From positions 1 through 64,000 of IMG/VR virus record IMGVR_UViG_3300005100_000002: DNA of 64,000 bases; one strand, written 5' to 3'. Positions 2,296-55,028 of this stretch are shown piece by piece. Source of the stretch: a virus. The notes beneath the pieces were generated by a model. It did no database searches. It was not told the DNA's origin and was given only the letters and a program-made list of their open reading frames with translations. The position numbers and the translations under genes were made by a program. Numbering within the stretch: the stretch's first letter is position 1; each line of letters begins with the position of its first letter.

Positions 2296-2889
2296 TTATA
2301 CGCCTGCAACAGCGGCTTTAAGTTCATGCTCGTTAATAAGAACATCCCACTTGGCGTATGTACCCAAGACATTATCCTCTCGATTTGTAAGCCCCAAAAT
2401 CCGGCATCCGACATCAGAACCAGCGCCGGAAGTGCTTGAATCGAGTTCCACGATTGACAGCCCTGTAGTAGTGCTGCAATCGCCAATCACAAGGTCAATA
2501 TTGAGGCCTACCATATCGGCATCAATGTCGTTTGTATCATTATCCTCCTGGACCTCGAAGATAACATTCGGATCATCCACGACCAGGCAATAACCTGCGG
2601 TACTTGCAGGACTGTAAGCCCGGTGCAAATTGTCCTGATCTACTGCGATATAGGGCTGGTCGCTGACTCCGATTATTACTCCACGGATATCAGCGCCTAC
2701 AGTAGCTCGCTCTACAGTAGGATATTTTCCGGTCGCATCAGCACTTCCGCCTGATTTTACCGGATCTCCGATTCCCAATCTTGTGCCATAGCCGACCGCA
2801 ATAGAATACATGCGAGCCTTGCCATTCCACGGACTTCCATTTAAATGCCGAACGGGTTTTAACCCTGCTGGCCTGTCAACATTACTCAT
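2296..2889 (-). CDS. head-associated protein (decoration/auxiliary capsid candidate)
   Basis: 197-aa Gly-rich ORF directly upstream of the capsid gene. Function inferred from position only. Confidence 0.45.
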   Translation of the reverse strand: MSNVDRPAGLKPVRHLNGSPWNGKARMYSIAVGYGTRLGIGDPVKSGGSADATGKYPTVERATVGADIRGVIIGVSDQPYIAVDQDNLHRAYSPASTAGYCLVVDDPNVIFEVQEDNDTNDIDADMVGLNIDLVIGDCSTTTGLSIVELDSSTSGAGSDVGCRILGLTNREDNVLGTYAKWDVLINEHELKAAVAGV

Positions 2890-2912
2890 CTTATCACCTC
2901 ATATTTTCAAGG

Positions 2913-3311
2913 TCAGGTTATACTAACGTTCCCGTATGTTCCCTGGCCTTTTTTATTAAGATTGTGTTTCATGTCATTTTCTGCCGCTAAAATCTTGTCA
3001 TGCTTGGCTTTTTGATCTTCCTTGTACCAATCTTCTCGAATCTCCATCAGGATTGCCTTTGTGCCGGCTCCGACGGATATATGCACCGGACTGCCCGGCA
3101 TGTTTTCTTTTCCAACCTTGGGGTCAGTCATCTCAACATCTCCCGTTACTACCTTGTACCCAGCCTTCTCAAAGTCCTGTACTCGCCCTGGCTCAACATT
3201 GACAACTCGCCTTACAAACCCTTTTCTTTGGGGTGGTCTAAGCACATTACGAGTACCAAGAGGTACTCTCATCGGTCTACCGAATGGTCCTTTTTTTACG
3301 CTATCGCTCAT
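2913..3311 (-). CDS. hypothetical head-module protein
   Basis: 132-aa ORF whose start overlaps the scaffold-like gene stop by 4 nt (translational coupling). Confidence 0.5.
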   Translation of the reverse strand: MSDSVKKGPFGRPMRVPLGTRNVLRPPQRKGFVRRVVNVEPGRVQDFEKAGYKVVTGDVEMTDPKVGKENMPGSPVHISVGAGTKAILMEIREDWYKEDQKAKHDKILAAENDMKHNLNKKGQGTYGNVSIT

Positions 3312-13754: not shown

Positions 13755-15155
13755 ATGAATTATTTATACACCGGAGACTGTCTTGATATTTTAAGGCAGA
13801 ATATCAAGGCTGAGTCTGTTGATCTGGTTTATATCGACCCACCGTTCAACAGTAAACGAAACTACAACATCTTTTTTGATGACAAGGACATAAAATCTCA
13901 ACGAGTTGCCTTCACCGACACGTGGTCATTGAAAAACACACAGGATTCGTTGAGTGAGTTACAGGCGATGAAGACTGAAAGCTTGCATCAATTATTGATG
14001 GCATATTCGGATGTTGCGCCCTTCGCTTTTCCGTATTTGGTTATGATGTCTTTACGGATTATAGAGCTTCGCAGGGTTTTGAAAGAAACCGGCAGCTTTT
14101 ATTTGCATGTTGATCCAGCTATGAGTCATTATTTGAAAACTATCTGTGATGTAATTTTCGGGATAGGCAAATACCGTAATGAGATTGTCTGGTGTTATTC
14201 AGGTGGGGGTGTGCCACGGAACGATTTCCCTCGAAAACACGATATCATTTTGCGCTACAGTAAAACCAAGGATGTTGTTTTCAATGTTGAGAGAAAAGAC
14301 TATAAGGACAACACCCAGGCGGTTGGCAAACACAGCACACTTAGCAATGGCAATGTTGAGATTGATCTCGAACGTGGCACCCCGGTCACGGATTGGTGGA
14401 CTGACTTGAAAACGATTACCGGATGGGCGAAGGAAAAGTTAGGATACCCCACGCAAAAACCTTTGTCGCTGCTTGAGCGCATTATAAAAACCAGCTCGAA
14501 TAAAGGCGATGTTGTTCTTGATGCGTTTTGTGGCTGTGGAACTACTATAGACGCGGCTGAAAAGCTTGGGAGAAGCTGGATCGGGATTGATATTTCTATT
14601 ATTGCTACTGGCATAATCGAACGAAGATTAAGGGCTACTTTTGGAAAGGTTCTCTCAAAATACAGAGTGAAAGGCATTCCCACTGACGAGCAAACAGCGA
14701 AAAAGCTTTGGGAGCGAGATCCTTTTGCGTTTCAGGACTGGTTCATAACTGAATTTGGAGCATTTTCCTCAACCTTCGGCACAAAGGGCGCTGATAAAGG
14801 AATCGACGGCATTGCAAAATATAGAGCAGGAAGAGACGGCAAGACTATCAGAGCTGGCTTCCAGGTCAAGGGTGGCAAGGTGCAGTCAAAAGATATTGAC
14901 GCCTTGTGGGGTGCGATGAATAAGCATAAATGTGATCTCGGTGTTTTCCTGTCTATCAATAAACTGACCAAGCCAATGCTTGAGACGATATCGAAATCCG
15001 GTTATGCAGAGGCTTCAGGCAAAAAGTTTCCTAAGCTACAATTCTTAACCTTGAAAGATTTTTTTGCGAACAAGCATCTGCGCCTGCCGCCGGAAAACAT
15101 TACTTTTGAATCGGCACGGCTGAAGGGTAAGGGGTTCACGCAGATAGAGTTCTAA
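13755..15155 (+). CDS. beta-class N6A/N4C DNA methyltransferase fused to a C-terminal Mrr-like restriction-endonuclease domain
   Basis: Motif IV IDPPFN precedes motif I VLDAFCGCGTTIDAA. The C-terminal GADKGIDGIAKY...GFQVKGGKVQSKDIDAL matches the Mrr_cat-type PD-(D/E)xK pattern. Strong SD (AAGGAGG). Confidence 0.85.
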   Translation: MNYLYTGDCLDILRQNIKAESVDLVYIDPPFNSKRNYNIFFDDKDIKSQRVAFTDTWSLKNTQDSLSELQAMKTESLHQLLMAYSDVAPFAFPYLVMMSLRIIELRRVLKETGSFYLHVDPAMSHYLKTICDVIFGIGKYRNEIVWCYSGGGVPRNDFPRKHDIILRYSKTKDVVFNVERKDYKDNTQAVGKHSTLSNGNVEIDLERGTPVTDWWTDLKTITGWAKEKLGYPTQKPLSLLERIIKTSSNKGDVVLDAFCGCGTTIDAAEKLGRSWIGIDISIIATGIIERRLRATFGKVLSKYRVKGIPTDEQTAKKLWERDPFAFQDWFITEFGAFSSTFGTKGADKGIDGIAKYRAGRDGKTIRAGFQVKGGKVQSKDIDALWGAMNKHKCDLGVFLSINKLTKPMLETISKSGYAEASGKKFPKLQFLTLKDFFANKHLRLPPENITFESARLKGKGFTQIEF

Positions 15156-40403: not shown

Positions 40404-41390
40404 TTAGCCTATTTTCTGGATTTGCATAACATTTTTACCGTCTGCCGCAGGGGCTGTACCATCCGACCCTTTAGTATGGTATAAAAATAGCTCTATATAA
40501 TCATTAACCGCTGTATTTAAGATAGCCGCTATGGATAAACTTAAAACTCCGACTCCACCAACATACACAACTGCGTATGCCCCAAAAGAAACTCCATTTT
40601 TTCTAAATTCCACAACTCCTGCTGCTCCATCAGGAAGAGAACTAGTAGCACCAACTCCTATACATAAGTATTTACCGGCTACGCCTACCGTAAACCTATA
40701 ATTAGCAGCATTATCAAACTCATTGTGAGTATCCCACAACTCTGTTGCTAAAACTAATTTTGTCCAAGTGCTGCTTGTTATAGTTTGATCTGAGGTCAAC
40801 TTAACCCCACAACCGCTTTGCCCTGCCATAGTCACGATACCATTATCATTAACAACAACATTTCGTTCTTGTACTCCTCTTGATCCACCATCCCCGCCTA
40901 TAAGCTTATTGTCTGCTATTACCGCAACGGCCTTGGTGCGAAGCTCCACCTCATCATAAACAGCATTTTTAGAAGGAGCAACTGCCGTTATCCCATTCCA
41001 GCCAGCCCCATAAGCTGTATCGGAGACATTAAGCCCTGATATCACCACACCATTAGCATCCAATACTGTTATTCTCGCACCATCAGTATGTAGTGAATAA
41101 CCAGCGCCAAGAGAAATTGTTTTAGGAATAAGATACCTTGGATTACCACCATTGGCCGGGTCGAGGCATAGGGTTATGTTAACTGCCGAGGTGTGTTTAT
41201 TAACGAGTATGATACTGACTACTGAGATCGCAGCTCCGGCCGTGTAAAGAACTGCCGTTAATGTCGTGTTCATCACTCCTGCTGCGAGCTGTGTGAATGT
41301 GCCTCCTGCTAATCCGTGCAGCGTATAGTCGATAACCGCATCTACCGAAGCACCGCCTTCAATTACATCTGTAGAATCTAAACAAAGCAT
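40404..41390 (-). CDS. tail fibre protein with a jelly-roll-type C-terminal domain (candidate)
   Basis: 328 aa, Gly/Ala/Thr-rich beta-type composition, located in the fibre module. Confidence 0.55.
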   Translation of the reverse strand: MLCLDSTDVIEGGASVDAVIDYTLHGLAGGTFTQLAAGVMNTTLTAVLYTAGAAISVVSIILVNKHTSAVNITLCLDPANGGNPRYLIPKTISLGAGYSLHTDGARITVLDANGVVISGLNVSDTAYGAGWNGITAVAPSKNAVYDEVELRTKAVAVIADNKLIGGDGGSRGVQERNVVVNDNGIVTMAGQSGCGVKLTSDQTITSSTWTKLVLATELWDTHNEFDNAANYRFTVGVAGKYLCIGVGATSSLPDGAAGVVEFRKNGVSFGAYAVVYVGGVGVLSLSIAAILNTAVNDYIELFLYHTKGSDGTAPAADGKNVMQIQKIG

Positions 41391-41397
41391 AATACTC

Positions 41398-41607
41398 CTA
41401 TAAGGTCCCTAAAACCGCTGCTGTAGCAAAGGCTATTCCACTTTCAGCATCAACATAAGCCTTAACCGATTGCTGCGAAGGGACCTTGGCTGCACTATCC
41501 GAAACCATATCGTCTTCATCTATAAAAAATCCATACCCGGAAGCATCAACATCCGCTACCAGTGCACAATCGGCTTGAAAGGCTATACGTTCCCAAACTA
41601 CGGCCAT
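41398..41607 (-). CDS. small fibre-module protein
   Basis: 69 aa. The N-terminus MAVVWERIAF is paralogous to that of 41861..42319. Confidence 0.5.
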   Translation of the reverse strand: MAVVWERIAFQADCALVADVDASGYGFFIDEDDMVSDSAAKVPSQQSVKAYVDAESGIAFATAAVLGTL

Positions 41608-41828
41608 TACACTTTCCTTTTCTCCGGGAAATACCCATCCTTTAATTGCTCAAGCAAGTCTTTCTTGACCAAATCCAGGACAGCGTTTACATGGACCAAA
41701 GGTAATTGCGAAGCCGCCACAAACTGCACTACTTTTGCATAGAGCACTCTGATTTGTACTTCCAGAACGTTCTCATATTTGGTCGAAAGGCTTTTGAGGG
41801 CTTCCGCGCTGTGTTCAATGGCTTCCAT
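41607..41828 (-). CDS. hypothetical helical protein
   Basis: 73 aa. The ATG directly abuts CRISPR-like repeat SRU-A. Confidence 0.5.
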   Translation of the reverse strand: MEAIEHSAEALKSLSTKYENVLEVQIRVLYAKVVQFVAASQLPLVHVNAVLDLVKKDLLEQLKDGYFPEKRKV

Positions 41829-41858
41829 GTTTCAATCCACGCTCCCCAAGGAAGCGAC
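41829..41858 (-). CRISPR. solitary CRISPR repeat unit SRU-A (type I-C-like); not an array
   Basis: Minus strand: GTCGCTTCCTTGGGGAGCGTGGATTGAAAC. It has a 5' GTCGC, a 7-bp stem (CGCUUCC/GGGGAGCG, one G-U pair) and a 3' GCGTGGATTGAAAC. It fills the 32-nt gap between two late genes. Confidence 0.7.
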
Positions 41859-41860
41859 TT

Positions 41861-42319
41861 TTAGACAATAACCGTACAACCATAAAAAGCAAGTTCATCT
41901 ACCTGGAAAGCCAGCTTGCCTAATATCGGCGTCAGGGCTATCTTAGCAGCATGGTCAGCTACATTTTGTATAACCATGTTCTGCATTTGCTGATGGTTCC
42001 AGTCAAACGCAGCGGCAGCATCCCCGCTTAAAGAGGCAAGCAGTTCGGCATCCGTTAACCCTTCCAGCCCGGCAGCGTTAAAAACGGCATGCTCGGTATC
42101 ATTCGCCGTTCCATCTATCTGCACCATGTTATCATCAGCGATGCCGATAACTATCCCGTCAACATTACCACCAGTTAAACGTCCAACTACCTCTTGTTCT
42201 GCTACAACCAGGGCAGCCGGTGTGTCGTCAACGGTTGCCGCCAGAACTGATTGAGCGTCGAAGAGTGTTTTGAGTACGGCGTTTTTTTCAAAACAAATCT
42301 TGTCCCAAGTTACCGCCAT
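41861..42319 (-). CDS. fibre-module protein
   Basis: 152 aa with N-terminus MAVTWDKICF. Confidence 0.5.
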   Translation of the reverse strand: MAVTWDKICFEKNAVLKTLFDAQSVLAATVDDTPAALVVAEQEVVGRLTGGNVDGIVIGIADDNMVQIDGTANDTEHAVFNAAGLEGLTDAELLASLSGDAAAAFDWNHQQMQNMVIQNVADHAAKIALTPILGKLAFQVDELAFYGCTVIV

Positions 42320-42334
42320 GTCATTCCTCCATTC

Positions 42335-42670
42335 TTAAATTCCAGTACAAACATACACAGACTTGTCGATACTACTATACCACATTCCACCCTCAACATC
42401 AGACGGAGCCGAAGCCGCAGGCGTTAACACTATTTCAGGTACTTCAGTAACCCCATCCGCACCCAAACTCACACCGCCCCCCAACCAGTCGCTTAATTCC
42501 TTATACTCAGATTCAAGAAAGCGCAAAAAGTTGGCCTTGGTCACCTTTTGGGTTATCGCATCCTTTACCCCTGGAAGAATATCAACCTCTCCCATAGAAG
42601 TCATTTCCGGCAAGTCGGATATCTTGACAGTCTCAAGCTCAGTTACATCAGCGAGGATTATTGTTCCCAT
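42335..42670 (-). CDS. short receptor-binding or adaptor protein sharing the tailspike N-terminus
   Basis: MGTIILADVTELETVKISDLPE... is paralogous to the N-terminus of 42679..44466. Confidence 0.55.
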   Translation of the reverse strand: MGTIILADVTELETVKISDLPEMTSMGEVDILPGVKDAITQKVTKANFLRFLESEYKELSDWLGGGVSLGADGVTEVPEIVLTPAASAPSDVEGGMWYSSIDKSVYVCTGI

Positions 42671-42678
42671 GCAATTCC

Positions 42679-44466
42679 TTAAAAATCAATCTCTGGAGAT
42701 GTCGTATTGTTCGGAGATCCTATCAGGTTTGTGTAATCCGCTGCACTCCATGCAGCATTAAGCGCACAATTATAAACCAGAATATCCATTTTATTTGCAC
42801 CCGTATAGACCAGCGGTGAGTTACCCGCACCGTCTCCATGTATCAACGTTGAGAACTTAGCTTTGAGTCCGCTATCTGCTTCCACGGTAGTCAGAATGGC
42901 AGGGTGCCCTACTCCACCGTCAACCCTGGAATAACCTAACACTATTGTTGATGTAGTAACATTTTGTGTTATCGCCGGATGACCAGTCGGTGCTTTAATT
43001 GTTGATGTATAAACCAGACAGTAAGAACTCGTACCACTTGTTAATGTAACATAGGCATTGGCCGTTAAGCATTCCTCAAAACCCACGTAGGCGCTGTTTC
43101 CATTGACCTCAATATTGCCACCGTTTAGCTGGGACAAGCCGAAAAAAATAATAGACTCGTTTGCCTGAAGCTCTATTATATCGCTGGTAAAAGTAAGCGA
43201 ATATAATTTATGGCCATCTATGGTGACACTGCTTCCCGTTGGAATTGTAAGCTCCGCCAGATCCACAAACGATTCTCTTAAGTCAATAACGCCGGAGACA
43301 GCAATCGAGTTAATCGCATCCTGAAGAGAAAAATACCTATTAAGAGATGCACACCCGACTGCCTTAATCGGACAAGTAATTTGTATGTTGCCGGATATCC
43401 CGTTATGCTGCGTATTGTTGGAATAAACCACATCTGGAATAACAACATCGGAAGTAATATCAGCCTCGCCATCAGGGATTTTATTATCGCTAATACCTTC
43501 AAAACTTGAATTTATCATTTTAAACGAGGCCGGCGCTGAAGTAAAATGCAGCCCGTTTATAATTACAGAATTTACTATGTTGATTAATCCGGTAGTGCTG
43601 AAGACACTCCTTACCGCTGATCTATAAACATAACAATCATCGACCCTCCAGTCCCAATCTCCGCCAATAGCTGTACTTCCGGCCAGTTCTGTGTCTGTCC
43701 ATTTAAAATTAGCAAAGCCGACATGCGTGCTTAAAAGGGTAGGAACGCCTTCCCCTCTAAAGGTGCAGCCCGCTCTTAACAAGATGTTGCGAAGTCCTGT
43801 AAGATTTGTTCCTGTGAGGTTAAATCCGCCATAAGCTGATCCGTAAAATGCGCAATTACTGAATATGGCCAGTGCAGAGCTGTCTCTTTCAATAAAATGG
43901 CCATAATTGAATCTGCAACTGTAATAATCCCCTACCGGCAATTTACCGAATATACCACCTGCGTCCGTTTCAACATTTATTCCGGACAGCTCATAAATTT
44001 CATCCTCGTCAGACCTTAAAGGATAATGAGCTGCATCAGCGCCGGTGTTATAAAGCGTCGCCGGTGGTTCGGTATCCAAGGCGTCATAACCGCTTGCATA
44101 GCTTTTGATAAGCATATTTTCGTACGAATGGATTTGTTCTGTGTATTTGCCGGGAGCGAGCCTGATAACAACTTTATTGTTCGAGTCGGTTACCGGCCCC
44201 CATTTACCGTATGCGAAATCAATCGCTGCTTGGATTGTACTAAACTGATGAGAGGCTTCATTGTCTGTAAAGACAGGGCTTACATGCGCAACCCTATCAC
44301 CGCCAACTATTACATCCTTAAGCAGGTTTGACTTAGCTATTTTTTTGGTTTTTCCTATAGAGACTGTAGGGAAGGCAGCAGCATCACCAACCGCGGTGGC
44401 CACTGGAAGTTCGGATATTTTAACGGTTTCGAGTTCGGTTACGTCAGCAAGAATAACGGTTCCCAT
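42679..44466 (-). CDS. tailspike / receptor-binding protein (probable beta-helix)
   Basis: 595 aa. N-terminal anchor MGTVILADVTELETVKISELP, then a long Asn/Gly/Ser/Thr-rich periodic region. Confidence 0.65.
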   Translation of the reverse strand: MGTVILADVTELETVKISELPVATAVGDAAAFPTVSIGKTKKIAKSNLLKDVIVGGDRVAHVSPVFTDNEASHQFSTIQAAIDFAYGKWGPVTDSNNKVVIRLAPGKYTEQIHSYENMLIKSYASGYDALDTEPPATLYNTGADAAHYPLRSDEDEIYELSGINVETDAGGIFGKLPVGDYYSCRFNYGHFIERDSSALAIFSNCAFYGSAYGGFNLTGTNLTGLRNILLRAGCTFRGEGVPTLLSTHVGFANFKWTDTELAGSTAIGGDWDWRVDDCYVYRSAVRSVFSTTGLINIVNSVIINGLHFTSAPASFKMINSSFEGISDNKIPDGEADITSDVVIPDVVYSNNTQHNGISGNIQITCPIKAVGCASLNRYFSLQDAINSIAVSGVIDLRESFVDLAELTIPTGSSVTIDGHKLYSLTFTSDIIELQANESIIFFGLSQLNGGNIEVNGNSAYVGFEECLTANAYVTLTSGTSSYCLVYTSTIKAPTGHPAITQNVTTSTIVLGYSRVDGGVGHPAILTTVEADSGLKAKFSTLIHGDGAGNSPLVYTGANKMDILVYNCALNAAWSAADYTNLIGSPNNTTSPEIDF

Positions 44467-45033: not shown

Positions 45034-45315
45034 TTAATCTTTTTTATGTAGATATGCTTCATCCACATCTTTCAAGAATTCGGACATATAAATGCACAAT
45101 TCGTCCAGCTTGTCTTTATCTGCTAACAAATCTTTTTTTGCCACTATGTTTAAGCACGCCTTAATATCATCTCTTAACTCTTTTGCAGTAAACGTACATA
45201 CATCGCAAATCGCAAAAAGAGCATTGTCTCTGGTTGCTAATTCATCAGTTGAAGGAGCACGCCTAAAAGTGTACCAATGCCCGCTGCCCCTGCTGCCCCA
45301 CCTGCTATAGCTCAA
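45034..45315 (-). CDS. hypothetical protein (start uncertain)
   Basis: The ORF is open to 45396, but that would overlap the upstream gene by 92 nt. A TTG at 45315 overlapping the upstream stop is more plausible. Confidence 0.4.
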   Translation of the reverse strand: MSYSRWGSRGSGHWYTFRRAPSTDELATRDNALFAICDVCTFTAKELRDDIKACLNIVAKKDLLADKDKLDELCIYMSEFLKDVDEAYLHKKD

Positions 45316-45517
45316 GAGACTTAAGCTCTTTCTTAATAAAATCACAGATTGTGCCAATATTTGCATCAAATATGGTATTATATTTATCCGAAACAATAGA
45401 CCTGGTATCCATGATCGCAGAATTATAATCTATGATAAAACGGTTTTCTACCTTGTCATGTTTCATCGTAAAAGAAGAAACTGGATTGCTATATTTAATT
45501 TTTGACAACTCACTCAT
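45305..45517 (-). CDS. hypothetical protein
   Basis: 70 aa with AGGAAAAAGGAAAA upstream. First gene after SRU-B. Confidence 0.5.
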   Translation of the reverse strand: MSELSKIKYSNPVSSFTMKHDKVENRFIIDYNSAIMDTRSIVSDKYNTIFDANIGTICDFIKKELKSLEL

Positions 45518-45539
45518 AATTATTTTCCTTTTTCCTAAC

Positions 45540-45571
45540 GTTTCAATCCACGTTCCCGCATGGGGAGCGAC
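45540..45571 (-). CRISPR. solitary CRISPR repeat unit SRU-B (type I-C-like); not an array
   Basis: Minus strand: GTCGCTCCCCATGCGGGAACGTGGATTGAAAC (32 nt). Lies in the 112-nt spacer between the giant gene stop and ORF 45305..45517. Confidence 0.75.
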
Positions 45572-45629
45572 TTTATCAGGAGCGCCTTCCTATCCTCGCC
45601 GTCCTAATAATCCCATATCACAAGTTCTT

Positions 45630-48600
45630 TTAATCGGCAACTAAAAACTTACGAAATCGCTCATTTTGTGTTTTTGCGATAAACGACATCCTGGTGTCAA
45701 TGGTCTCTATCAAATCCCGCTTCTTGTCAGACGACAAAGCCTTAGACCCCATGACGACCGCCTTCCTCTTCCGCAGCTTGCCAAGCGCTAAAGATTGTTT
45801 CCTGAATATTTTCGCGAAAACCTTGACGCCTTTGGTTTTTTCATCAAACTTGATAGCTTCATCTCGATCCGTCTTGATTAAAACCTTAAAGCCCTGCTCA
45901 GCTTCGTTAGCCCTTTGCAGGTTATCATAAAAGTTCGTTATGTCTTTGCCAGCGCTGCCAATAGGTTCTCTGGAAATAAACCCTCTTATGCCAGGCATCA
46001 CACGATACCAGTCTTTTGTAACTTCCGGCACATCCCCTGTCTCAAACAATGGATCTATGATATCAAGGCCAAGCTTACCCAAACCGCCCGACCAACCCCT
46101 AACCCAATTTTCCATCTTTAATGGCGAAAGATTAGTCACTTTGCCAATCTCTCTAAGAACACTACTGGTATACTGGTGCGCTCTTTGGCCGGGAGGCAAT
46201 CGTTTTATGGTTTCACTTTCAATAGGCCGCTTCATAAAGAAGCTCCAGTTTGTCATATTTTCGATTAAAGCTAAAGGCAATGTAGGAATAACCCCAGGCA
46301 CAACGCCTTCCACTATGGAATGAGCTATTGTTTCCAATTCTTTGGGATCGTTGAGGACAATATAGTCAAAAATCCTTTCCGGTAAAGAACCAAATATAAG
46401 CCCAAGCTCAAAAGGCTTCGGCAGGGATATTATGGGCATGTCTTTATCAATAACAATATTCCAAAAGAAGTTTTTCCTCCAACCAGGTAAAGAGTTGTAC
46501 CGTTCTTTTCTTTCATCATCACTATTATTAAACAGCCATAAAGCAATCGAAGGTATCGTTATCCCAAGCACCAGCCGGAGTAATGTCCGTCCCGGATGCT
46601 TTTGTAATTTCCTGCGCAATATGTCAGTCCCCTGTACATTAGCATTCCAGAAAGCCGTTATTTGATTAATCCGACGCTCCTCCCCTATTCTGCGAAAGTC
46701 CAGGGTGCTTTCTCTTGCCGCTGCCGTCGCTTCGGATGTTGTAGCACCCTTATCCTTGGCTCGCTTAAAAACTCCCAACCTGGTGGACTTCTCCATAACC
46801 TCAGAGGCTATCCGAAGGTACTCTATAGGATTGTATGTCTTTAATCCTTTCTTAAAGCCTAAGATGTCCCTGGCGGTCAGATTCAGGGTAGTCCTGTCCA
46901 TGCTGGTAAAATATGACTGTTCGCCACCACCTGCTTTGAATTCCTGATAAAGGTCGCCCTTTTTCATTAGTTCAAAGAAGCCTTTGCCAAAGTCAATAAA
47001 TGGTATATAGCCATATTTGGAATACACCATGGCTGAAAATTGATCCCTTACCGGATTGCGCATGATAAATTCAGCGGTCAAGGTAGCGCCTGCACGAAGT
47101 AGTTTTGCAGGGCCGGATAAGATCTTTATGGCCATGCTCATTTCTTGAGGTGAATAATAATCTATAGCCTTGTGGACATCCGGAGGAACTCGCCAGTAAT
47201 GCTTAACCCCATCCACAGGAACTATAATAGTGCCCTTGGGCTGAATTGGCGACCGGATTGATACCTTAGTCCCACCTCTTGGGCCAGGCCGTTCAGGCAC
47301 GTCTTTCGTTAGATATTGCGGCTGTACCTCTTCAATAACTTCGGCAAGGTCAGGTGTTAAATCCTTTAGTTCAACTATCTTTTTATTGAGCTTTATTGTT
47401 TCCAACAGCTTAATGGTTTTATAGGTATTGGACACAGACGATTCAATGGTAGGTATTTTCCTGAGTTCAGATCCCTTTATCTTTTTAAGAGGATCTTTGC
47501 CGCCATGAACCTGCTCGCCAACCGTATCCATCTCCCGCAAAAACGAAGCATAAAACTCTGACTCAGGTTTTGCCTTTATTCCATCATAAACCTTTTTAGA
47601 CAACCAGCCTTCTTCTACCAATAATTTCAAAAGGGTATCGTCATATTTGCGCTGCTCCTTTGAAACATCCCGGAGCTTTTTAATATTATCCCCATATTTC
47701 TTTTCAAGGGCTTTTACCACCTGCGACGATGCTTCTATATCTGTCCCTTTGATGTCCGGTCTAAACGTGGCCAGGGCAATATCCCTTTCAGCTATCCTGA
47801 GCGTCTCATAATCCTCGTATTCCTGGGGAGACAAGTCTTTGACTATTTCCTTAAGAGATTGAGAACCTTCGATATATTCAGGCTTACCACCTTCATCATA
47901 TCTGTGGGGACCTTTGCCGGCAACAAACACTTCGACAATCCCGCCCTTGCCCCAAACCTTATTTATCTGATCTTGTATCCTTTGGATAACCTTTGGATCT
48001 TTTGCTTTGGCCGCCAACCGTATTGCAGGGAATTCAGCAAAAACGAATTTGGTATAAACTTTGGCGATAAAATCCTTGGCGACTTGCTTGGTGAGTTGTA
48101 GTTTTTTAGGTTCAAAAGCTATATGTTTTTCTTTATAGGTTTTGATAACGTCTTCATCTGCCGGCAACGGTTTTTCTATGGGCGCTTTTACCGGAGCTTT
48201 GTACTTCTTGAGTAGTTCTTTATAATCTGTCGGTGGTTTCTCTTTTGCAAATAATGGCATGCCTTCAACAAGAGCGGCCCGTTTTAGGGCTGGGGTTATG
48301 GTGAAAGATTGTTGGGTTGTTGTTTCGGATACCCGCTCTATTTTACCACCAAACAGCTCAGCGACAGCATTGCTCTGCATTGCGACTGCGTTGCTAAAAG
48401 ATGTTCCGCTCTCTATTTCTTTTTGTAATGATTTCAATTCATTCGCCACCTGAACTCTGTTAACTGCGAACATTTGACGTTCCCCAGTTATAGGACTTTC
48501 AAAAACACTTGGGCCGTCTTTTTTGGCAACCACAAGAGATTTTTTCACATCCTCTATTGTATAATCATCACCAATATATTCTCTTTTTGATTGCCACCCA

Positions 48601-51600
48601 GTTGTGTCAATTTCAGTAGCCCCGACTTCCGCTCCATCTTTTTTCCCAAATTTCTTGAGATATTGAGGTATCATGCGGTCGTATAGTGCGTATGTCCAAA
48701 CTCCGCCCGTTTTGAGATCAAGCCCTGAGAAAATAGCAGTTCCCTTATCATCATCCCCAAACTTGCTTAATGCCTTATCTGTTAAGTCTTTACCTACATG
48801 CCCCTGCAACTCATCCACTGAAAGATTTGATTTTGCTATAACCTTTTCACCATCATAGTCGAAAGCATCTATCCTGTAGCCAGATTTCTTCGTATACAAA
48901 ATAGTTACGCTTTCGAGGTGCTTGCTTAGGTCGTATCTGTCAGCCGTTTGCTGTCCCGTAACCCAAGAAACCTTGTCCATCCCTTGTTCGGCTGCCATGC
49001 GGATAATGCGTTTTAACACTACTTCGTGCCAGTTCTTTTTGAATGGTATGTCAGGAACAGCTTCTCGTGTCGCACCATCAAGAGCTTCTCTTTTGGTCGG
49101 TGCGGCAAATTGCTGAATACCATTTTCGTTTAAAACCTCCCATTTATTCTCACCAAGTTCAGGAATAAATTCTTGAATTGTCCACTCAGCAGGTAATATT
49201 CCCCGATACCCCTTTTTTCTGCCCTCCAATGCAAAATCGCTTTGTAGCTCTTCAATGAATAAAATCTTATTGCCATCGGCGTCCGTTCTTTCGTTTGTCC
49301 GGACGTGGGCGAATACGTTTGGTTCGTCCCAATGGGGAGATACAAACCCCGCATCACCTTCTTTTTCAATTTGTTCGTATCTGTTTTTTAGATATTCATA
49401 TCGTGCTAATTCAGCAACGGTAAGTTTTTTATCGCCTTGCCTAACGTAAGAATTTAATTTTGCATATTCACTATATTCTTTTTTTGAAAGAAGTGGTTTT
49501 TTGCCAGGCAGCGTAAACAAAAGCTCACGATAGTTTTCTTTTTCGCCTGGGAGCTGGTATTGTGCAAATTTGGTAGTGTCGTATTTTTTAATTTTAGTTA
49601 AAGCATAATCTCTTGCTTCTTTTTCTGTTTTGTATTTAGAAACAGGCAGTTGCAACACATTGCCAGGAACATTGAAAATATGAAATGAAACATTCCCTTG
49701 TTTTTCTACTCCCTGATAATCTAAATCTTCTTCAGTATAAAAAACATCCCCACTCTTCACAACCTCCTCAACCACAACCTGATTTTCTCGAAGCAACCCC
49801 ACCAGTTCATCCCGCACAACAACCTTCTTACCCTCAAGCATTGCCTCAACATCCATCCACTCAAGCTCTGCCGCTTTAATCCCAGGCTGTTTCCTAAGCC
49901 ATGGCATCACCGCTGAAGCTTGCATCTTAGCAGGCATTTTGTCTTGAACGGTTTTAATAACTTGTGAGTAGAAGCGTTCAGCCTGTTTAATTGCCTGATA
50001 TCCAGGGACTCGTAAGGCCCTATCAATACCAACTCCTGTCCCTGGCTTGCCTATCTCAACATAACTCCTTGCATCATATATTAATTGACAAAGCTCTGCG
50101 TCTGCCATTTTTAACGAAGGCATGATTTTTCGCATAAACCTTCTAATAACCGCCACCACCTTGTTTACCCAATTGGATTCAGGGTTCGTCACAGCCTCTC
50201 TTGACAGCCATTCTTCAGCAGCCAGAACCCTTCCTTTATATGTGGCGGTATCAAAGCCATAGCTATCAGCTATCGTCTGGATCGCCGGTTCTTTGGCGGA
50301 ATAAACCTTATCCATAATGTCGCCAAATTCTTTGCCAAGGACTGCCCGCAAGCCAAAGTGACCAAAAGACTCATGCAGTAAAGTCTTAACGGCATCTTCA
50401 GGAGATGCTTGATTATCAGCTACGATATAAACCTTGCCACGAAAATATACGCCATCAACAATCTGGCCTTCGCTGTATTTTAATATTTCTTTGGGTAGTT
50501 CTGATTGAGACTGAACGACTTCGACTATAGGCGCATTCTTCCACCGAGCAGTTATTTTATTAATATGGCCTTGCAGTTCAGATGCTACAGAAGCTTCACT
50601 TACCAATGGATAAGGTTTGCGTATTAGAAAAAGAGGCTTTATTTCAGTAAGCTCTTCAAAATGTTTAGCTGCTTTCGCATAAGCATCGGTAGCATCCAGC
50701 AAATCTTGTTCCATTTGATTGCCGGAGCGTTTAATCCCTGTTTCTTCAGCTATCTCTTTAAGCGTCGTCTTGCCGGCTTTATGTTCATCATAATAAGCCT
50801 GAAGCTCTCCCATTTCATCATGTGTGTGTTGCACCATAACTCTTGCATACTCTATGTCTTGAGATTCCATTTTCTCAACGGCTTCAGCGATATAATCTTT
50901 ATCGGCCACAGATTTAATTTTATTCCTAACTGCTTCAGATATATCTTGAGAAAGTAGCCAATTCTGGAAAGGATTTAACAACACTGCGCCGGTCAAGTCT
51001 CTTACTTCAGTATCGGCTACTTCCTCAAAAATTCTATCTATATCTTCCGGCTTTAATTTTTCAGGAGCTACGTCTAATATTTTTTTGTACTTAGCTTCCG
51101 GAACAGCCTTTTTTGCAGGTGCCTTGGGCTTAAATTTCTTACTAATTATTGTTGAAGGGAATGCACTTTCGACACGTTTTTGAAAATCAAACAATTCGCT
51201 GCCTATAATTTCAAAGGTCCCATCATTAGGAACCTCGAATTTAAAAACAGTGTCAATTTGCTGTAGAGGATTAATGCGCATTTTTAACAGCTCTCTTGCC
51301 CTTTCTACACTTTCAACCTCAGCTTCTTTTAGGCTACCTTCGATGGCTTTATCAATCTCGGTCAATAAATATGTCTTTTGTTGCTTAGGCGTTACCGCGG
51401 CTTCTTCTTTTTTGGTAAGATCAATGGTTATTTCTTTGCCTTCTGGGGTTGGAGCTACTTCGATCTTTTCTTCTATCACTTTTGGCTCTTCAGTCTTTAT
51501 CTCTACCATAGCTCTTTTTCTATATCGTCCACCACGCTCAAGGCCTGTAACCATGTTCGCCGGCATCTCTATAGGATTGCTTGCACCGTCAGGCAAAATA

Positions 51601-54600
51601 TCCACTGTGTCGGCATCTTTATGCACTTTAACGACATCTCCATAGAATACCTGTCCACCACTATTTTCAAATTTAACATAGTCATCTACATAGACTTTTA
51701 TGGATTCTTTGGCTTTTGGCTCGACTGGCTTTTCTTTTTCAGGAGTTACTTCGATTTTTTCTTTTTTAACTTTAGGTTTTACTCCAGGAACGACAGGTTT
51801 AATAATCTTGGCCTTTTTAACCGGAGCAAGCTTGATCTTTTCTTTTTTTTCGGGAATTGCTTTAATTTTCTTTTTTTCTATTTTCGGAGCAACCTCTGGT
51901 ATAGGCTTGGCCTCGATCTCTTCCCTAACGGCCTCTGGTGGCTTCGGCTTGGCAACATCAGGTGCTATTGGCTTTGCGAGCTTCGCTATTTCCTTTTCGG
52001 CAATTTCACCTTCACGCCTACGACCTTCCCCGGTATCGACTTCACGAAGTCCTGGAGGCCGCTCTCCACGTCTGGCACGTAATCCTTCGGCTTCTCTTTC
52101 TTCTTTGTGTTTTCTGAGGAGTCGATCTGCTTCTGTTTCTTCCCTGTGAACACCATAGCTTACCCCCAAACCTTTATATGTATATTTTTCGCCTTTATCA
52201 TTTGTGAATTCAAGCTCAGCCCCGGACAACTTTTCGTTCAGTTTATCTGCCAGCGCTTCTGCTTCTTTTTCTGTTTTTGCACGGATAATGAATTCATCGC
52301 CACTGATATGATAGCTGTCGGGAGTAACTTCAGAAGCCGCCTTAGCTACAGTCTGAAGCAACTCATCGCCTGCCGCGTGCCCGGCAAAGTCATTGACATA
52401 TTTTAGAGAATCAACATCTATATATGCTTTGGGCTTAGTGATCCCTTTTTCGAGATCAACGGCTTCAGCTTCCTGATAGGCACGTTTGTTCGGAATCCTT
52501 GTAACTGGATTAATAAGGAGTTCCGCCCTCAGCTCTTCTTGTGACATCTCGGATATCAATTTTCTGCGAGCGATATCTTTTCTGCGTTCGATCTTAGTCG
52601 GTTTCTTAATTTCCGGCTCCACATCTACGGCCGGCTTCTTTATTTTGGAATATGGCCTCGTCTGTCTCTTCTCGACAAATGTTTTCAGATCATCCATAGA
52701 GACTTCGGTTATATCCCCAAGCCCTTTCCAGCCTTTTTCATAATTAGCGAGATACCCCTCGCTTGCAGCCTCAAGAGAAGGATAGCCGACCATAGCCTTA
52801 TGTTCATCAAACTTGCCGGTCTCAGGGTCTATCTGATCTACGATATAAGCCCTATCACCTTCTTTGCGTTCACCTGCATTAACAAATACGTCTATCTGTT
52901 CACCGTCTTTTCCCGCTGATCGCTTGAAGTATCCATAATGACCACCAGACATCGTGATCGACCATTTTTTTCCTTCGGGGGAAACGCCTGATCTCTTTGA
53001 ACCTTCTGGATTCTCGATTGAGATATCGAAACCTTGAACTTTGATATGAGCTTTTTTATAGTTTCCTGCTTCAATTTGAGCTTCGGTCGGGGACGCATCA
53101 ACTTCTCGAACTTGAGCTTCTATCTTTGCCGGGTCCTCTACATTCAACCTGCCATGAACCAAATTAAATAAATCCGGCCTTTCTTTTACAAGCGTTTCGG
53201 CTTCAGCTATTCTTGCTTTTCTTTCAACATCTCGCATGCCCGGTTCTATTAAATCATTCCACTGAGTAGCTGCCGTTTGCGCTTCCTCAACGGTCATTCC
53301 TTTCAGTAACCGTTTTTGATCAGGGGTCGTTTTTAAGCCCTTGCCCTCTTTGTCGACTTCTACAGGTATCGCTATTTTCTCAGGCTTATATCCACGGATT
53401 AAGAACTTATTGATATCCGGCTCTATTTCAGCTTTGGCCTTGATTCGCTTTTCTTCTGTTATTTTTTCCTCAAACACTTCGGCAGATATTTCGGCAGGTC
53501 TTCTTGGGGCTTCTTCAAAAACCTCTGCGGCCTCCTTTATCCTCTCTTCAGAGGTTAATGCCTTCCCGGTTAAAAGCTCCTTCGCGGTGATGCCTTTTTC
53601 GCCTTCATCAAGAAGAGTATCACGGGCAGCAGATATCGGTTTTTCGACCGGCTCGACCTCTTCTGCAACGAACATCTCGGTTATTTGTGTTGCAAGGGCG
53701 GGATCTTGAGTGGCTATTTTTTCAATCACAGGCGCCATATCATCTATGGTTACTTCGCCACTTTTGATGTCTTCAGCTAATTGCCCCGATTCAACAGCGT
53801 CTCTAAATATTCCGGTTTCTTCTGAAGTTGTTTGTGTAAAATCTGCATTTATATCAATCGGAACGCCTGAATCAATAAGGGGCTCAACCATATCGGCCCA
53901 TGATTGTCGTAATTCTTTGTCGTCAATATTTTTTGCAATATACTCAGCTGCCTTTTTTCTTTCTTCTGGATTCTCACTGTTTAATTGATTTTTTACACTA
54001 TTTCTTTGCAGGCTTGTTATCCCTTGTGCTCCTACCCCAAAAAGCACACTCATGGTAAGGGCCGGAATAATAGATTCAACCGCTGCTTCTTGCCATGCTC
54101 CTTCAGGAAGAAGCCCTATCTCTTCATCTACCTTGGCGCCCAAAGCCCCCTGAATCATTTCGGTCGGGACTTCATTCAATAAAGCATTTTTCGTAAGATT
54201 TTTTGCAAAAGTTTTTACCGGAGTCTTTAAAAGTTCTTTGGCTGTAGTCTTTAAAGGCTGTGCCGCAAGCTTGCCCCAACCAAAAGTTACCATACCTATA
54301 AGGTTTGAGACGGTCTCTATCCCGCCTTCAATAATACCTTGTTTAATTGCGGCTCCATGTGCTGTTTTTTCATCTATGCCTTGTTGGACATATTCTTCTT
54401 TTTTCTGCCCATATACGCCAAGCCCGTGAATTCCAAGCGTGGCGCCTATGCCTCCAACAAGCCCTCCGATTACTGTACCTGGTGGCCCGAAAACGCTTCC
54501 GGCAAGAGCTCCAGCCCCAACCCCAACCCCTAATGGCGCAAGCGATGGGATTGTGCTTTCGAGGCCGCCCATTATCCCGCGTCTTACAAAGCCTTCCTCT

Positions 54601-55028
54601 TCGACACCAGGGACAGCGGGCTTCATTATACCAACGTCTCTCATGCCTTCTGAGACATCAATTATTTTCTGGCCAACCTTTTCGACAACATCTATCCCGC
54701 CTTCAGGATCAAGCGTTTTGATTGCGTGACCTGCTAATTCCCCAAGGGCGGGGATACCACGCGCAACTGCGGCAACTCCGGCTTTTATGACACCAGGTTC
54801 TTTCTCTTTGGCATCTTTTTTTCCAATCGCAACATAATCATCATCAGTCATTCCCTGTGTATAAATATCAGGATGACGATAGCCTTCTAACCTTTTTTGG
54901 ACAATAGCTCTTCCTGCATCCCGGTATTTTTTGGACATCTCGTCCTTCTTGAACTCGCTTGCAAATACCGATTGCCCTGAGAATGTACGTTTTGGTTTTT
55001 CTTTTGTTTCGTAATCAAAAAATGCCAT
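45630..55028 (-). CDS. giant multidomain virion (ejected, polyvalent-type) protein, 3132 aa
   Basis: Single uninterrupted ORF. It contains N-terminal Gly-rich TM segments, a pyrophosphatase-like beta-barrel segment (AGNYKKAHIKVQGFDISIENPEGSKRSG...DGEQIDVFV), a GGDEF-like domain, a Lys/Pro/Glu linker, a zincin HESFGH domain and an ...ILFIEELQSDF... domain. Located in the virion gene block. Confidence 0.85.
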   Translation of the reverse strand: MAFFDYETKEKPKRTFSGQSVFASEFKKDEMSKKYRDAGRAIVQKRLEGYRHPDIYTQGMTDDDYVAIGKKDAKEKEPGVIKAGVAAVARGIPALGELAGHAIKTLDPEGGIDVVEKVGQKIIDVSEGMRDVGIMKPAVPGVEEEGFVRRGIMGGLESTIPSLAPLGVGVGAGALAGSVFGPPGTVIGGLVGGIGATLGIHGLGVYGQKKEEYVQQGIDEKTAHGAAIKQGIIEGGIETVSNLIGMVTFGWGKLAAQPLKTTAKELLKTPVKTFAKNLTKNALLNEVPTEMIQGALGAKVDEEIGLLPEGAWQEAAVESIIPALTMSVLFGVGAQGITSLQRNSVKNQLNSENPEERKKAAEYIAKNIDDKELRQSWADMVEPLIDSGVPIDINADFTQTTSEETGIFRDAVESGQLAEDIKSGEVTIDDMAPVIEKIATQDPALATQITEMFVAEEVEPVEKPISAARDTLLDEGEKGITAKELLTGKALTSEERIKEAAEVFEEAPRRPAEISAEVFEEKITEEKRIKAKAEIEPDINKFLIRGYKPEKIAIPVEVDKEGKGLKTTPDQKRLLKGMTVEEAQTAATQWNDLIEPGMRDVERKARIAEAETLVKERPDLFNLVHGRLNVEDPAKIEAQVREVDASPTEAQIEAGNYKKAHIKVQGFDISIENPEGSKRSGVSPEGKKWSITMSGGHYGYFKRSAGKDGEQIDVFVNAGERKEGDRAYIVDQIDPETGKFDEHKAMVGYPSLEAASEGYLANYEKGWKGLGDITEVSMDDLKTFVEKRQTRPYSKIKKPAVDVEPEIKKPTKIERRKDIARRKLISEMSQEELRAELLINPVTRIPNKRAYQEAEAVDLEKGITKPKAYIDVDSLKYVNDFAGHAAGDELLQTVAKAASEVTPDSYHISGDEFIIRAKTEKEAEALADKLNEKLSGAELEFTNDKGEKYTYKGLGVSYGVHREETEADRLLRKHKEEREAEGLRARRGERPPGLREVDTGEGRRREGEIAEKEIAKLAKPIAPDVAKPKPPEAVREEIEAKPIPEVAPKIEKKKIKAIPEKKEKIKLAPVKKAKIIKPVVPGVKPKVKKEKIEVTPEKEKPVEPKAKESIKVYVDDYVKFENSGGQVFYGDVVKVHKDADTVDILPDGASNPIEMPANMVTGLERGGRYRKRAMVEIKTEEPKVIEEKIEVAPTPEGKEITIDLTKKEEAAVTPKQQKTYLLTEIDKAIEGSLKEAEVESVERARELLKMRINPLQQIDTVFKFEVPNDGTFEIIGSELFDFQKRVESAFPSTIISKKFKPKAPAKKAVPEAKYKKILDVAPEKLKPEDIDRIFEEVADTEVRDLTGAVLLNPFQNWLLSQDISEAVRNKIKSVADKDYIAEAVEKMESQDIEYARVMVQHTHDEMGELQAYYDEHKAGKTTLKEIAEETGIKRSGNQMEQDLLDATDAYAKAAKHFEELTEIKPLFLIRKPYPLVSEASVASELQGHINKITARWKNAPIVEVVQSQSELPKEILKYSEGQIVDGVYFRGKVYIVADNQASPEDAVKTLLHESFGHFGLRAVLGKEFGDIMDKVYSAKEPAIQTIADSYGFDTATYKGRVLAAEEWLSREAVTNPESNWVNKVVAVIRRFMRKIMPSLKMADAELCQLIYDARSYVEIGKPGTGVGIDRALRVPGYQAIKQAERFYSQVIKTVQDKMPAKMQASAVMPWLRKQPGIKAAELEWMDVEAMLEGKKVVVRDELVGLLRENQVVVEEVVKSGDVFYTEEDLDYQGVEKQGNVSFHIFNVPGNVLQLPVSKYKTEKEARDYALTKIKKYDTTKFAQYQLPGEKENYRELLFTLPGKKPLLSKKEYSEYAKLNSYVRQGDKKLTVAELARYEYLKNRYEQIEKEGDAGFVSPHWDEPNVFAHVRTNERTDADGNKILFIEELQSDFALEGRKKGYRGILPAEWTIQEFIPELGENKWEVLNENGIQQFAAPTKREALDGATREAVPDIPFKKNWHEVVLKRIIRMAAEQGMDKVSWVTGQQTADRYDLSKHLESVTILYTKKSGYRIDAFDYDGEKVIAKSNLSVDELQGHVGKDLTDKALSKFGDDDKGTAIFSGLDLKTGGVWTYALYDRMIPQYLKKFGKKDGAEVGATEIDTTGWQSKREYIGDDYTIEDVKKSLVVAKKDGPSVFESPITGERQMFAVNRVQVANELKSLQKEIESGTSFSNAVAMQSNAVAELFGGKIERVSETTTQQSFTITPALKRAALVEGMPLFAKEKPPTDYKELLKKYKAPVKAPIEKPLPADEDVIKTYKEKHIAFEPKKLQLTKQVAKDFIAKVYTKFVFAEFPAIRLAAKAKDPKVIQRIQDQINKVWGKGGIVEVFVAGKGPHRYDEGGKPEYIEGSQSLKEIVKDLSPQEYEDYETLRIAERDIALATFRPDIKGTDIEASSQVVKALEKKYGDNIKKLRDVSKEQRKYDDTLLKLLVEEGWLSKKVYDGIKAKPESEFYASFLREMDTVGEQVHGGKDPLKKIKGSELRKIPTIESSVSNTYKTIKLLETIKLNKKIVELKDLTPDLAEVIEEVQPQYLTKDVPERPGPRGGTKVSIRSPIQPKGTIIVPVDGVKHYWRVPPDVHKAIDYYSPQEMSMAIKILSGPAKLLRAGATLTAEFIMRNPVRDQFSAMVYSKYGYIPFIDFGKGFFELMKKGDLYQEFKAGGGEQSYFTSMDRTTLNLTARDILGFKKGLKTYNPIEYLRIASEVMEKSTRLGVFKRAKDKGATTSEATAAARESTLDFRRIGEERRINQITAFWNANVQGTDILRRKLQKHPGRTLLRLVLGITIPSIALWLFNNSDDERKERYNSLPGWRKNFFWNIVIDKDMPIISLPKPFELGLIFGSLPERIFDYIVLNDPKELETIAHSIVEGVVPGVIPTLPLALIENMTNWSFFMKRPIESETIKRLPPGQRAHQYTSSVLREIGKVTNLSPLKMENWVRGWSGGLGKLGLDIIDPLFETGDVPEVTKDWYRVMPGIRGFISREPIGSAGKDITNFYDNLQRANEAEQGFKVLIKTDRDEAIKFDEKTKGVKVFAKIFRKQSLALGKLRKRKAVVMGSKALSSDKKRDLIETIDTRMSFIAKTQNERFRKFLVAD

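Follow-up and report, generated by a model that had tools for sequence, protein, structure and literature searches.

Two solitary type I-C CRISPR repeat units in the late operon of a phage: identity, context and candidate roles

What is a single repeat of a CRISPR system doing between two late genes of a phage? The question is raised by a stretch of viral DNA of 64,000 nucleotides (nt), positions 1 to 64,000 of the IMG/VR record IMGVR_UViG_3300005100_000002, which is called the window here. In the gap behind the gene for a giant virion-type protein, an earlier note on this DNA had pointed to one 32-nt element, named SRU-B (for solitary repeat unit), that looked like a repeat of the type I-C CRISPR systems. 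The element is such a repeat as far as sequence comparison goes, it stands alone, and it has a companion of 30 nt, SRU-A, 3.7 kb downstream on the same strand. SRU-B may be an RNA anti-CRISPR (Racr) carried in late mRNA, which would engage the Cas5c and Cas7 proteins of the host; to this reading, which is the one preferred here, we give about an even chance. Other roles, and the absence of any role, are weighed below.

Identity and origin of the two units

On the minus strand, positions 45571 to 45540 read GTCGCTCCCCATGCGGGAACGTGGATTGAAAC, which places the element exactly where the earlier note had put it. It is unique in the window, as no further site was found there at up to three mismatches, and none occurred in 100 shuffles. 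The published layout of a type I-C repeat consists of a 2-nt 5′ overhang, a 7-bp stem, a loop of about 5 nt and an 11-nt 3′ overhang (PMC8524198). In SRU-B, the corresponding segments (5′ overhang, arm, loop, arm and tail) measure 2 + 7 + 5 + 7 + 11 nt, with the arms CGCUCCC and GGGAACG, the loop CAUGC and the 3′ tail UGGAUUGAAAC. Six of the seven stem pairs form; the third is a C5·A19 mismatch. Thus, the imperfect palindrome, its single C-A mismatch and the tail are all present as the note had described them.

A bona fide type I-C array repeat, GTCGCTCCCCATGCGGGAGCGTGGATTGAAAC, shares 31 of 32 bases with SRU-B, the one change being G19 to A. This is the array repeat of, among others, a Bacteroidales metagenome-assembled genome (L030) and a Paenibacillus genome (L079). 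In the former, Pfam recognizes the Cas3 C-terminal, Cas_Cas5d, Cas_Csd1 (Cas8c), Cas_Cas7, Cas4, Cas1 and Cas2 domains directly ahead of the array; in the latter, Cas5d, Csd1 and Cas7 lie alongside it. The cas genes of L030 are on the same strand as the reading of the repeat that runs from GTCGC to GAAAC, and this is the orientation in which the repeat is transcribed in the array loci. In addition, a pattern covering both SRU-A and SRU-B, scanned over bacterial genomes, found at least 120 array-bearing stretches from many phyla. The identity of SRU-B with type I-C repeats is therefore confirmed at the level of sequence, with a match beyond chance. Rfam families all stayed below their gathering scores across the window, and the one hit in E-value mode was a partial match of 17 bits between CRISPR-DR9 and the tail of SRU-A. 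This null weighs little because Rfam holds a limited set of repeat families.

The class to which SRU-B belongs is known, and SRU-B itself has been catalogued in print. Camara-Wilpert et al. (Nature 2023, PMC10651486) give the filtered output of SRUFinder as Supplementary file 3, and this table contains a row for IMGVR_UViG_3300005100_000002, 3300005100, Ga0072724_100146, with the positions 45540 and 45571 and the type I-C. The sequence in this row, GTTTCAATCCACGTTCCCGCATGGGGAGCGAC, is the plus-strand reading of SRU-B, listed with an identity of 96.9 and a coverage of 100. Like the units that SRUFinder collects, SRU-B lies in a viral genome and between genes, matches a known repeat and has no other (partial) repeat beside it and no cas gene among the ORFs (open reading frames) scanned. 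In total, 2,103 viral solitary repeat units were reported (PMC10651486).

Besides its overall likeness, SRU-B keeps the part of the repeat on which processing depends. The cut by Cas5c falls behind nt 21, where the 7-bp stem ends on its 3′ side, and the product carries a 5′ handle of 11 nt; cleavage needs U22-G23-G24 and the stem base, while the loop and the 5′ overhang may vary (PMC8524198). The handle architecture that the earlier note had described agrees with this published cut. The predicted cut in SRU-B falls between 45551 and 45550, with the 11-nt handle at 45550 to 45540. Both units read ...CG followed, across the cut, by UGGAUUGAAAC; their two base-most pairs, C-G and G-C, are intact, and all of the positions published as important for Cas5c are retained (PMC8524198). 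The changes in SRU-A and SRU-B are confined to the loop and the inner stem.

SRU-A was found through a search for the 12-nt tail, of which it holds a second exact copy. Its canonical hairpin has seven pairs, including one G·U, and a triloop, with a folding energy of -9.3 kcal/mol; the 11-nt tail is intact, with a predicted cut between 41840 and 41839. The nearest array repeat is a 32-mer from a locus of Cohnella cellulosilytica (L064), at an edit distance of 2 (one C and one G lost). The two units have GUCGCU and CGUGGAUUGAAAC in common. Compensatory changes in their stems were considered and rejected, since the comparison of SRU-A with SRU-B reveals single-sided changes only (C to U, giving G·U; G to A, giving C·A; and the loop). 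Among those rows of Supplementary file 3 of the SRUFinder study that were covered here, neither SRU-A nor any second row for this contig was found; as far as they go, SRU-A is apparently uncatalogued.

Both units are solitary. Within 250 nt, the best ungapped identity to a possible partner was 15/32 for SRU-B and 14/30 for SRU-A, which is at or below the level of shuffled sequence, and Pfam and/or PHROGs recognized no Cas domain in about 50 open reading frames (ORFs) of the window, including all of those of at least 250 amino acids (aa). Thus, the claim that SRU-B has no adjacent repeat or array holds, and the claim that the window has no cas gene holds for the ORFs scanned. A mini-array was ruled out as well, as no degenerate partner lies within 250 nt and the units are 3.7 kb apart. 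The half-copy of the unit that had been noticed 7 nt away is real but adds nothing: it is an 8-mer with one mismatch, it finds no pairing partner within SRU-B, and by our own estimate it is judged to be chance.

The relatives of this phage indicate how the units may have arisen. They were fetched by three markers: the C-terminus of the giant, polyvalent virion protein (15 loci from viral and metagenome collections, at up to 80% aa identity), the large terminase (TerL; five loci) and orf152, the gene ahead of SRU-A (three loci). Since no relative fetched by these markers carries either unit, both were acquired recently. For SRU-A, the event can be read to the base. In two relatives (L275 and L276), whose orf152 homologues are 69% identical and whose gene order is as in the window, the junction with the next gene is an overlapping TAATG, within which the homologues of the 73-aa ORF start. 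The window has TAA-AA-[SRU-A]-ATG instead, that is, 33 extra bases exactly between stop and start. For SRU-B, the relative at 80% aa identity (L257) has the polyvalent gene, about 1 kb and then homologues of orf68, orf111a and the N-terminus of orf595; this 1 kb is unrelated to the segment of SRU-B, orf70 and orf120 in the window. By these sequence comparisons, SRU-A and SRU-B are derived insertions.

One artefact and one shortcut to the host were rejected. An assembly chimera joined through the repeat disagrees with the flanks, which are complete, co-oriented phage genes, with the polyvalent gene aligning to its end; the ancestral TAATG has kept both its stop and its start codon at SRU-A. An exact copy of the 32-mer in an Acidobacteriaceae locus (L137) was not accepted as a sign of the host, as it is a sporadic mutant repeat within an array.

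Solitary units elsewhere and the phage neighbourhood

Are the units of the window isolated cases? Two scans of viral contigs returned at least about 100 solitary units of the type I-C kind, of which 75 were left after de-duplication and the requirement of at least five stem pairs. The flanking genes were called crudely, as the longest open frames in flanks of 400 nt. With these calls, both flanking genes were on the strand of the unit in 26 of the 75 and both on the opposite strand in 6 (binomial p = 5e-4). When the two units of the window are added, a long sense ORF ends within 150 nt upstream in 34 of 77, against 15 for the antisense equivalent, and 9 units start within 10 nt past a sense-strand stop codon, against 1 for the antisense equivalent. 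This co-orientation of solitary units points to a role at the RNA level.

A number of these units are found at junctions between head or packaging genes of unrelated phages. For instance, a scan with PHROGs places units between the TerL and portal genes in L209 (7018-7046, 4 nt after the TerL stop); at the same junction in L158 (5148-5179 of the reverse complement, minus strand), the unit lies 7 nt after the TerL stop. The unit of L004 (569-599) begins 2 nt past the stop of TerL, that of L234 is downstream of the portal gene, and that of L161 (1330-1360) sits between a minor-head gene with an InPase domain and the head protease gene.

In one contig, a unit divides a gene. The TerL of L016 (3043-3120; IMGVR_UViG_3300037104_000061), 58% identical to that of the window, is split in frame at the boundary between its ATPase and nuclease domains by an insert of about 66 nt that contains a TAA, a type I-C unit, a Shine-Dalgarno-like AAGAG and a GTG restart. 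At this point, TerL is uninterrupted in the window and in five other relatives. A different interruption was seen in L274 (261-1186; IMGVR_UViG_3300014656_000483), where a TerL homologue is broken by about 0.9 kb between residues ~214 and 228 in the numbering of the window protein. The site differs from that of the L016 cassette, and an intron, intein or homing element could be responsible.

Several viral contigs carry two dispersed units each, as the window does. In L179 (IMGVR_UViG_3300031673_000079), two identical same-strand type I-C units (358-389 and 955-986) bracket one 169-aa gene, an arrangement that resembles an array with a 565-nt 'spacer'; the gene is lytic transglycosylase-like by eye only. 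Another solitary viral unit, GTCGCCCCCAGCATGGGGACGTGGATTGAAAC in L244 (minus strand, 3045-3076 of the reverse complement), has a C5·A19-type mismatch like that of SRU-B. The common mismatch may be a coincidence or a recurrent variant that alters cleavage by Cas5c.

In the window itself, the gap that houses SRU-B measures 112 nt from the stop of the 3132-aa ORF to the ATG of the 70-aa ORF, as the earlier note had stated. SRU-B starts 58 nt past this stop and ends 22 nt ahead of this ATG. The features around both units are collected in the table.

Table. The two repeat units and the features next to them (positions in the window)
Feature	Position	Strand	Remark
SRU-B, solitary 32-nt type I-C repeat unit	45540..45571	minus	GTCGCTCCCCATGCGGGAACGTGGATTGAAAC
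SRU-A, solitary type I-C-like unit, 30 nt	41829..41858	minus	GTCGCTTCCTTGGGGAGCGTGGATTGAAAC
'Half-copy' near SRU-B	45579..45586	minus	GGCGCTCC versus GTCGCTCC at the start of SRU-B; 7 nt upstream of SRU-B
3132-aa large polyvalent virion-type protein	45630..55028	minus	PHROG virion / minor head / DarB-like; Pfam InPase, GGDEF, LPD38
orf70, 70-aa orphan ORF	45305..45517	minus	ATG 22 nt after SRU-B, AG-rich stretch ahead
orf120, 120-aa frame overlapping orf70	45034..45396	minus	Fills the slot with orf70
orf152, 152-aa ORF	41861..42319	minus	TAA stop 2 nt before SRU-A
73-aa ORF	41607..41828	minus	ATG abuts the last base of SRU-A

Among the proteins encoded by the window are a capsid protein, a portal, TerL, a primase-helicase, an SbcCD-like nuclease, a methylase, an endolysin and fibre-like proteins. 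No integrase was found among its ORFs of at least 250 aa with Pfam and/or PHROGs. In the 3132-aa ORF, the InPase domain spans aa 649-785, GGDEF 841-973 and LPD38 2841-3005. The gene is regarded as complete because the alignment of its homologues stops no more than 4 residues short of the C-terminus. The GGDEF domain, which is diguanylate-cyclase-like, is unusual in a giant protein of the virion type. Downstream of SRU-B, orf70 and orf120 overlap by about 90 nt in different frames, and the first in-frame start of orf120 beyond the stop of orf70 is a late GTG; a frameshift, an error of sequencing or a single fused accessory gene could account for this. The sole match of orf70 among 5.8 billion proteins was itself. 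For the 70-, 120- and 73-aa ORFs, PHROGs were uninformative, with one marginal match of orf70 to a family of unknown function (E 0.0017).

Among cultured phages (GenBank/INPHARED), blastn returned nothing for the 5.5-kb region or for the 56 nt of unit plus flanks at E up to 1, and exact-protein look-ups with three window proteins found no other contigs. Around SRU-A, at 40404-44466 on the minus strand, orf152 and orf69 both begin with MAV(T/V)W..I.F, and orf595 and orf111b both begin with MGT(V/I)ILADVTELETVKIS. Such paralogous N-termini suggest several fibre or adaptor genes that share anchor domains, in a mosaic region. Far from the units, at 13755-15155 on the plus strand, a 466-aa protein fuses two domains, an N6/N4 DNA methylase and an Mrr-type restriction endonuclease.

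What the units may do

The class to which SRU-B belongs offers a model of action. Solitary repeat units can act as Racrs, and Cas binding, aberrant subcomplexes and inhibition of interference were shown for RacrIF1 and RacrIC1 only (PMC10651486). The latter is a type I-C unit that shares its transcript with an acrIC5 homologue 11 nt upstream and rescues type I-C-targeted phage, as was shown in PAO1::IC with phage JBD30 (PMC10651486). The class of RNA anti-CRISPRs to which the earlier note had appealed is, in this way, validated for another type I-C unit.

On this model, SRU-B would be transcribed as part of the late polycistronic mRNA, since it has no promoter of its own. Its hairpin and UGGAUUGAAAC tail would then imitate the repeat of a CRISPR RNA precursor (pre-crRNA), and host Cas5c would bind the mimic and probably cut it after G21. 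Cas5c might remain on the 11-nt handle and Cas7 subunits might polymerise along the phage RNA downstream, so that Cascade subunits would be drawn off the real CRISPR RNAs (crRNAs), which is the action of a Racr. We infer transcription, Cas binding, any cleavage and any benefit to the phage. In favour of this decoy stand the match to array repeats, the sense bias of solitary units, the precedent of RacrIC1 and the Cas5c determinants, which are intact in two units that have diverged independently. Moreover, the class of large polyvalent proteins has been linked to counter-defence, and the neighbourhood of SRU-B, with a polyvalent gene upstream, fits such a function.

Nevertheless, a number of points weigh against the decoy. 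Some of them concern timing: a decoy made late cannot displace Cascade that is already loaded, and the units lie among late genes of a phage whose ORFs of at least 250 aa yielded no integrase, while validated Racrs come from prophage-type elements. No promoter-like (sigma-70-like) site was found upstream of SRU-B, and this promoterless placement in a late operon is hard to square with a purely early-acting decoy. Others concern the RNA itself. In isolation, SRU-B folds with -6.8 kcal/mol and a shifted stem, against -13.0 for a version with a perfect stem, so that stability is halved; within its context, a fold other than the canonical hairpin is predicted to have the lowest energy. In addition, the 70-, 120- and 73-aa ORFs adjoining the units match no solved structure, hence no solved anti-CRISPR protein. 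The co-localisation of Racrs with acr genes is, for its part, a statistical tendency and not a requirement. Finally, neither unit is conserved, as none of the relatives fetched (15 + 5 + 3 loci) carries a type I-C-like unit, which also fits a neutral, transient insertion. By the rule for Racrs, the host should carry a CRISPR-Cas system of the cognate subtype; the 1597 type I-C array spacers searched point to no host, the best match to the window (18/19 nt) being at chance level.

One promoter-like match does occur at the unit, on its downstream side. The TTGAAA in the handle of SRU-B and an AATAAT 16 nt downstream (45519-45546, minus strand) form a 10/12 match to a sigma-70-like promoter. A promoter made by the handle was rejected, because transcription would begin past the next ATG; the match is probably fortuitous.

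If the units do nothing, they could be neutral or decaying scars, left by illegitimate recombination with a type I-C array of a host or by a former mini-array, and tolerated as inert sequence between genes. A recombination scar and the processing of phage mRNA by Cas5c had both been put forward in the earlier note, and both are speculative. The scar is unlikely in our estimation, although much of what was found would suit it: the units are specific to this lineage and absent from all of the relatives fetched, no promoter-like site precedes SRU-B, and SRU-A, with 30 nt, is shorter than any sampled array repeat (31-34 nt). In addition, a substitution of the kind that breaks the stem of SRU-B also turned up in an Acidobacteriaceae array, where one repeat at the old end is a sporadic mutant. 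By contrast, an accident at the DNA level should ignore orientation, yet solitary units are co-oriented by 26:6 and cluster just past sense stops. Decay would also have to explain why both units keep the whole of the part recognized by Cas5c, with changes only at positions reported to be tolerated, and a clean insertion of a single repeat between a stop and a start needs either two crossovers or selection.

The position of the units, exactly at cistron junctions and, for SRU-A, in place of a TAATG overlap, raises the possibility that they process or stabilise late mRNA. Host Cas5c, or simply the hairpin, would act at these junctions, so that a protective hairpin with a 2′,3′-cyclic phosphate would close the upstream message and the expression of neighbouring genes would be uncoupled. 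The chemistry of the products of Cas5c is published, and the units of other phages at TerL-portal junctions, after the portal gene and before the head protease gene, together with the cassette in the TerL of L016, would agree with such a role. Its probability is nonetheless small. A plain hairpin would serve without the conserved 11-nt handle, a load of Cas5c and Cas7 would cover the next start codon (in SRU-A, the ATG directly follows the handle), and the units are not conserved in relatives with the same gene order. To our knowledge, there is no precedent for the processing of phage mRNA by host Cas5c.

A bolder form of this proposal treats type I-C cassettes, placed at cistron junctions of late (head, packaging and tail) operons and able even to divide an essential gene, as elements that act in cis, where Cas5c would cut and the loading of Cas5c and Cas7 would set the stability or translation of the message. 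The phage would then use a host CRISPR nuclease as a processing factor for its own mRNA, either instead of decoying it or besides doing so. We see only a slim chance for this.

Even fainter is the prospect that the units serve as guides of the crlRNA type, in which a unit and the following 30-40 nt would direct the type I-C Cascade of the host to repress a partially matching promoter of host or phage. Single-repeat type I-C units of hosts do yield crlRNAs (bioRxiv 10.1101/2024.12.27.630466). However, when the 64-kb window was searched with every sixth position ignored, neither unit had a TTC-flanked site at up to three mismatches over guide positions 1-17, the same result as with shuffled guides. 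The would-be guide portion of SRU-B is an AG-rich, ribosome-binding-like stretch and the first codons, and that of SRU-A is entirely the start of the next ORF; because of these overlaps, both portions are constrained by other functions.

Least probable of all is that the units are patches of DNA homology for recombination with host arrays or for module exchange with other repeat-carrying phages: an earlier suggestion of viral integration into CRISPR arrays (PMC10651486) and the place of the units at module boundaries in the tail-fibre region, with paralogous N-terminal modules in the translations, would suit it, but 30-32 bp is little for homologous recombination to work with, no integrase turned up in any ORF of 250 aa or more, and a role of the DNA predicts no strand bias, contrary to the co-orientation of 26 versus 6.

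If SRU-B is indeed a Racr-type decoy, it would be a further case of a phage that disarms CRISPR by an RNA mimic rather than a protein. SRU-B itself adds little, because this principle was published in 2023 and the locus is already in the catalogue. What is added here is the occurrence of two type I-C units in one phage, with SRU-A as a clean 33-nt insertion between formerly overlapping genes, and the finding that solitary type I-C units in the viral contigs sampled are mostly in sense, near stops and recurrent at TerL-portal junctions, with one that splits TerL. As a result of these additions, the processing of phage late mRNA by Cas5c stays alive, if at a low probability. In turn, the placement in a late operon without a promoter offers a way to test when such RNAs act, and by what mode.

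Comparison with known systems

The nearest counterpart is the SRUFinder catalogue, which holds the same object as SRU-B; it gives coordinates and subtype only, without genomic context. In it, the earlier suggestion is recorded that solitary repeat units may allow viral integration into CRISPR arrays (PMC10651486). The type I-C array repeats of L030 and L079 have the same layout of overhang, stem, loop and tail and the same context of the Cas5c cut site as SRU-B. Unlike those arrays, SRU-B is a single copy, without spacers, a leader or cas genes, located in a phage and with a C·A mismatch. Virus-borne mini-arrays also consist of repeats without cas genes, and two of them, each with two repeats and one spacer, belong to the same repeat family (L003 and L019). 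However, a mini-array needs at least two repeats that frame a spacer, whereas SRU-A and SRU-B each lack a partner.

Host crlRNAs demonstrate that a single Cas5c-processed unit with an 11-nt handle can function without a second repeat. The type I-C units that encode them are chromosomal and lie between cas3 and cas5c; a single repeat-like element gives rise to RNAs of 48-50 nt with an 11-nt handle, which repress promoters through about 16 bp beside a TTC (bioRxiv 10.1101/2024.12.27.630466). In these units, the spacer-like part matches a nearby TTC-flanked promoter, in contrast to the units studied here, which have no such target in the window.

RacrIC1 offers a functional model. As in the window, a repeat mimic lies a few nucleotides downstream of a protein gene and has no promoter of its own, co-transcription being what would be expected for SRU-B and SRU-A. 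RacrIC1 follows an acrIC5 homologue in an anti-CRISPR locus of a Bifidobacterium pseudocatenulatum prophage, whereas the units of the window follow a polyvalent virion gene (SRU-B) and a putative fibre gene (SRU-A) in a late operon. Furthermore, the window differs from the RacrIC1 locus in having two dispersed units, one with a mismatched stem and one shortened to 30 nt.

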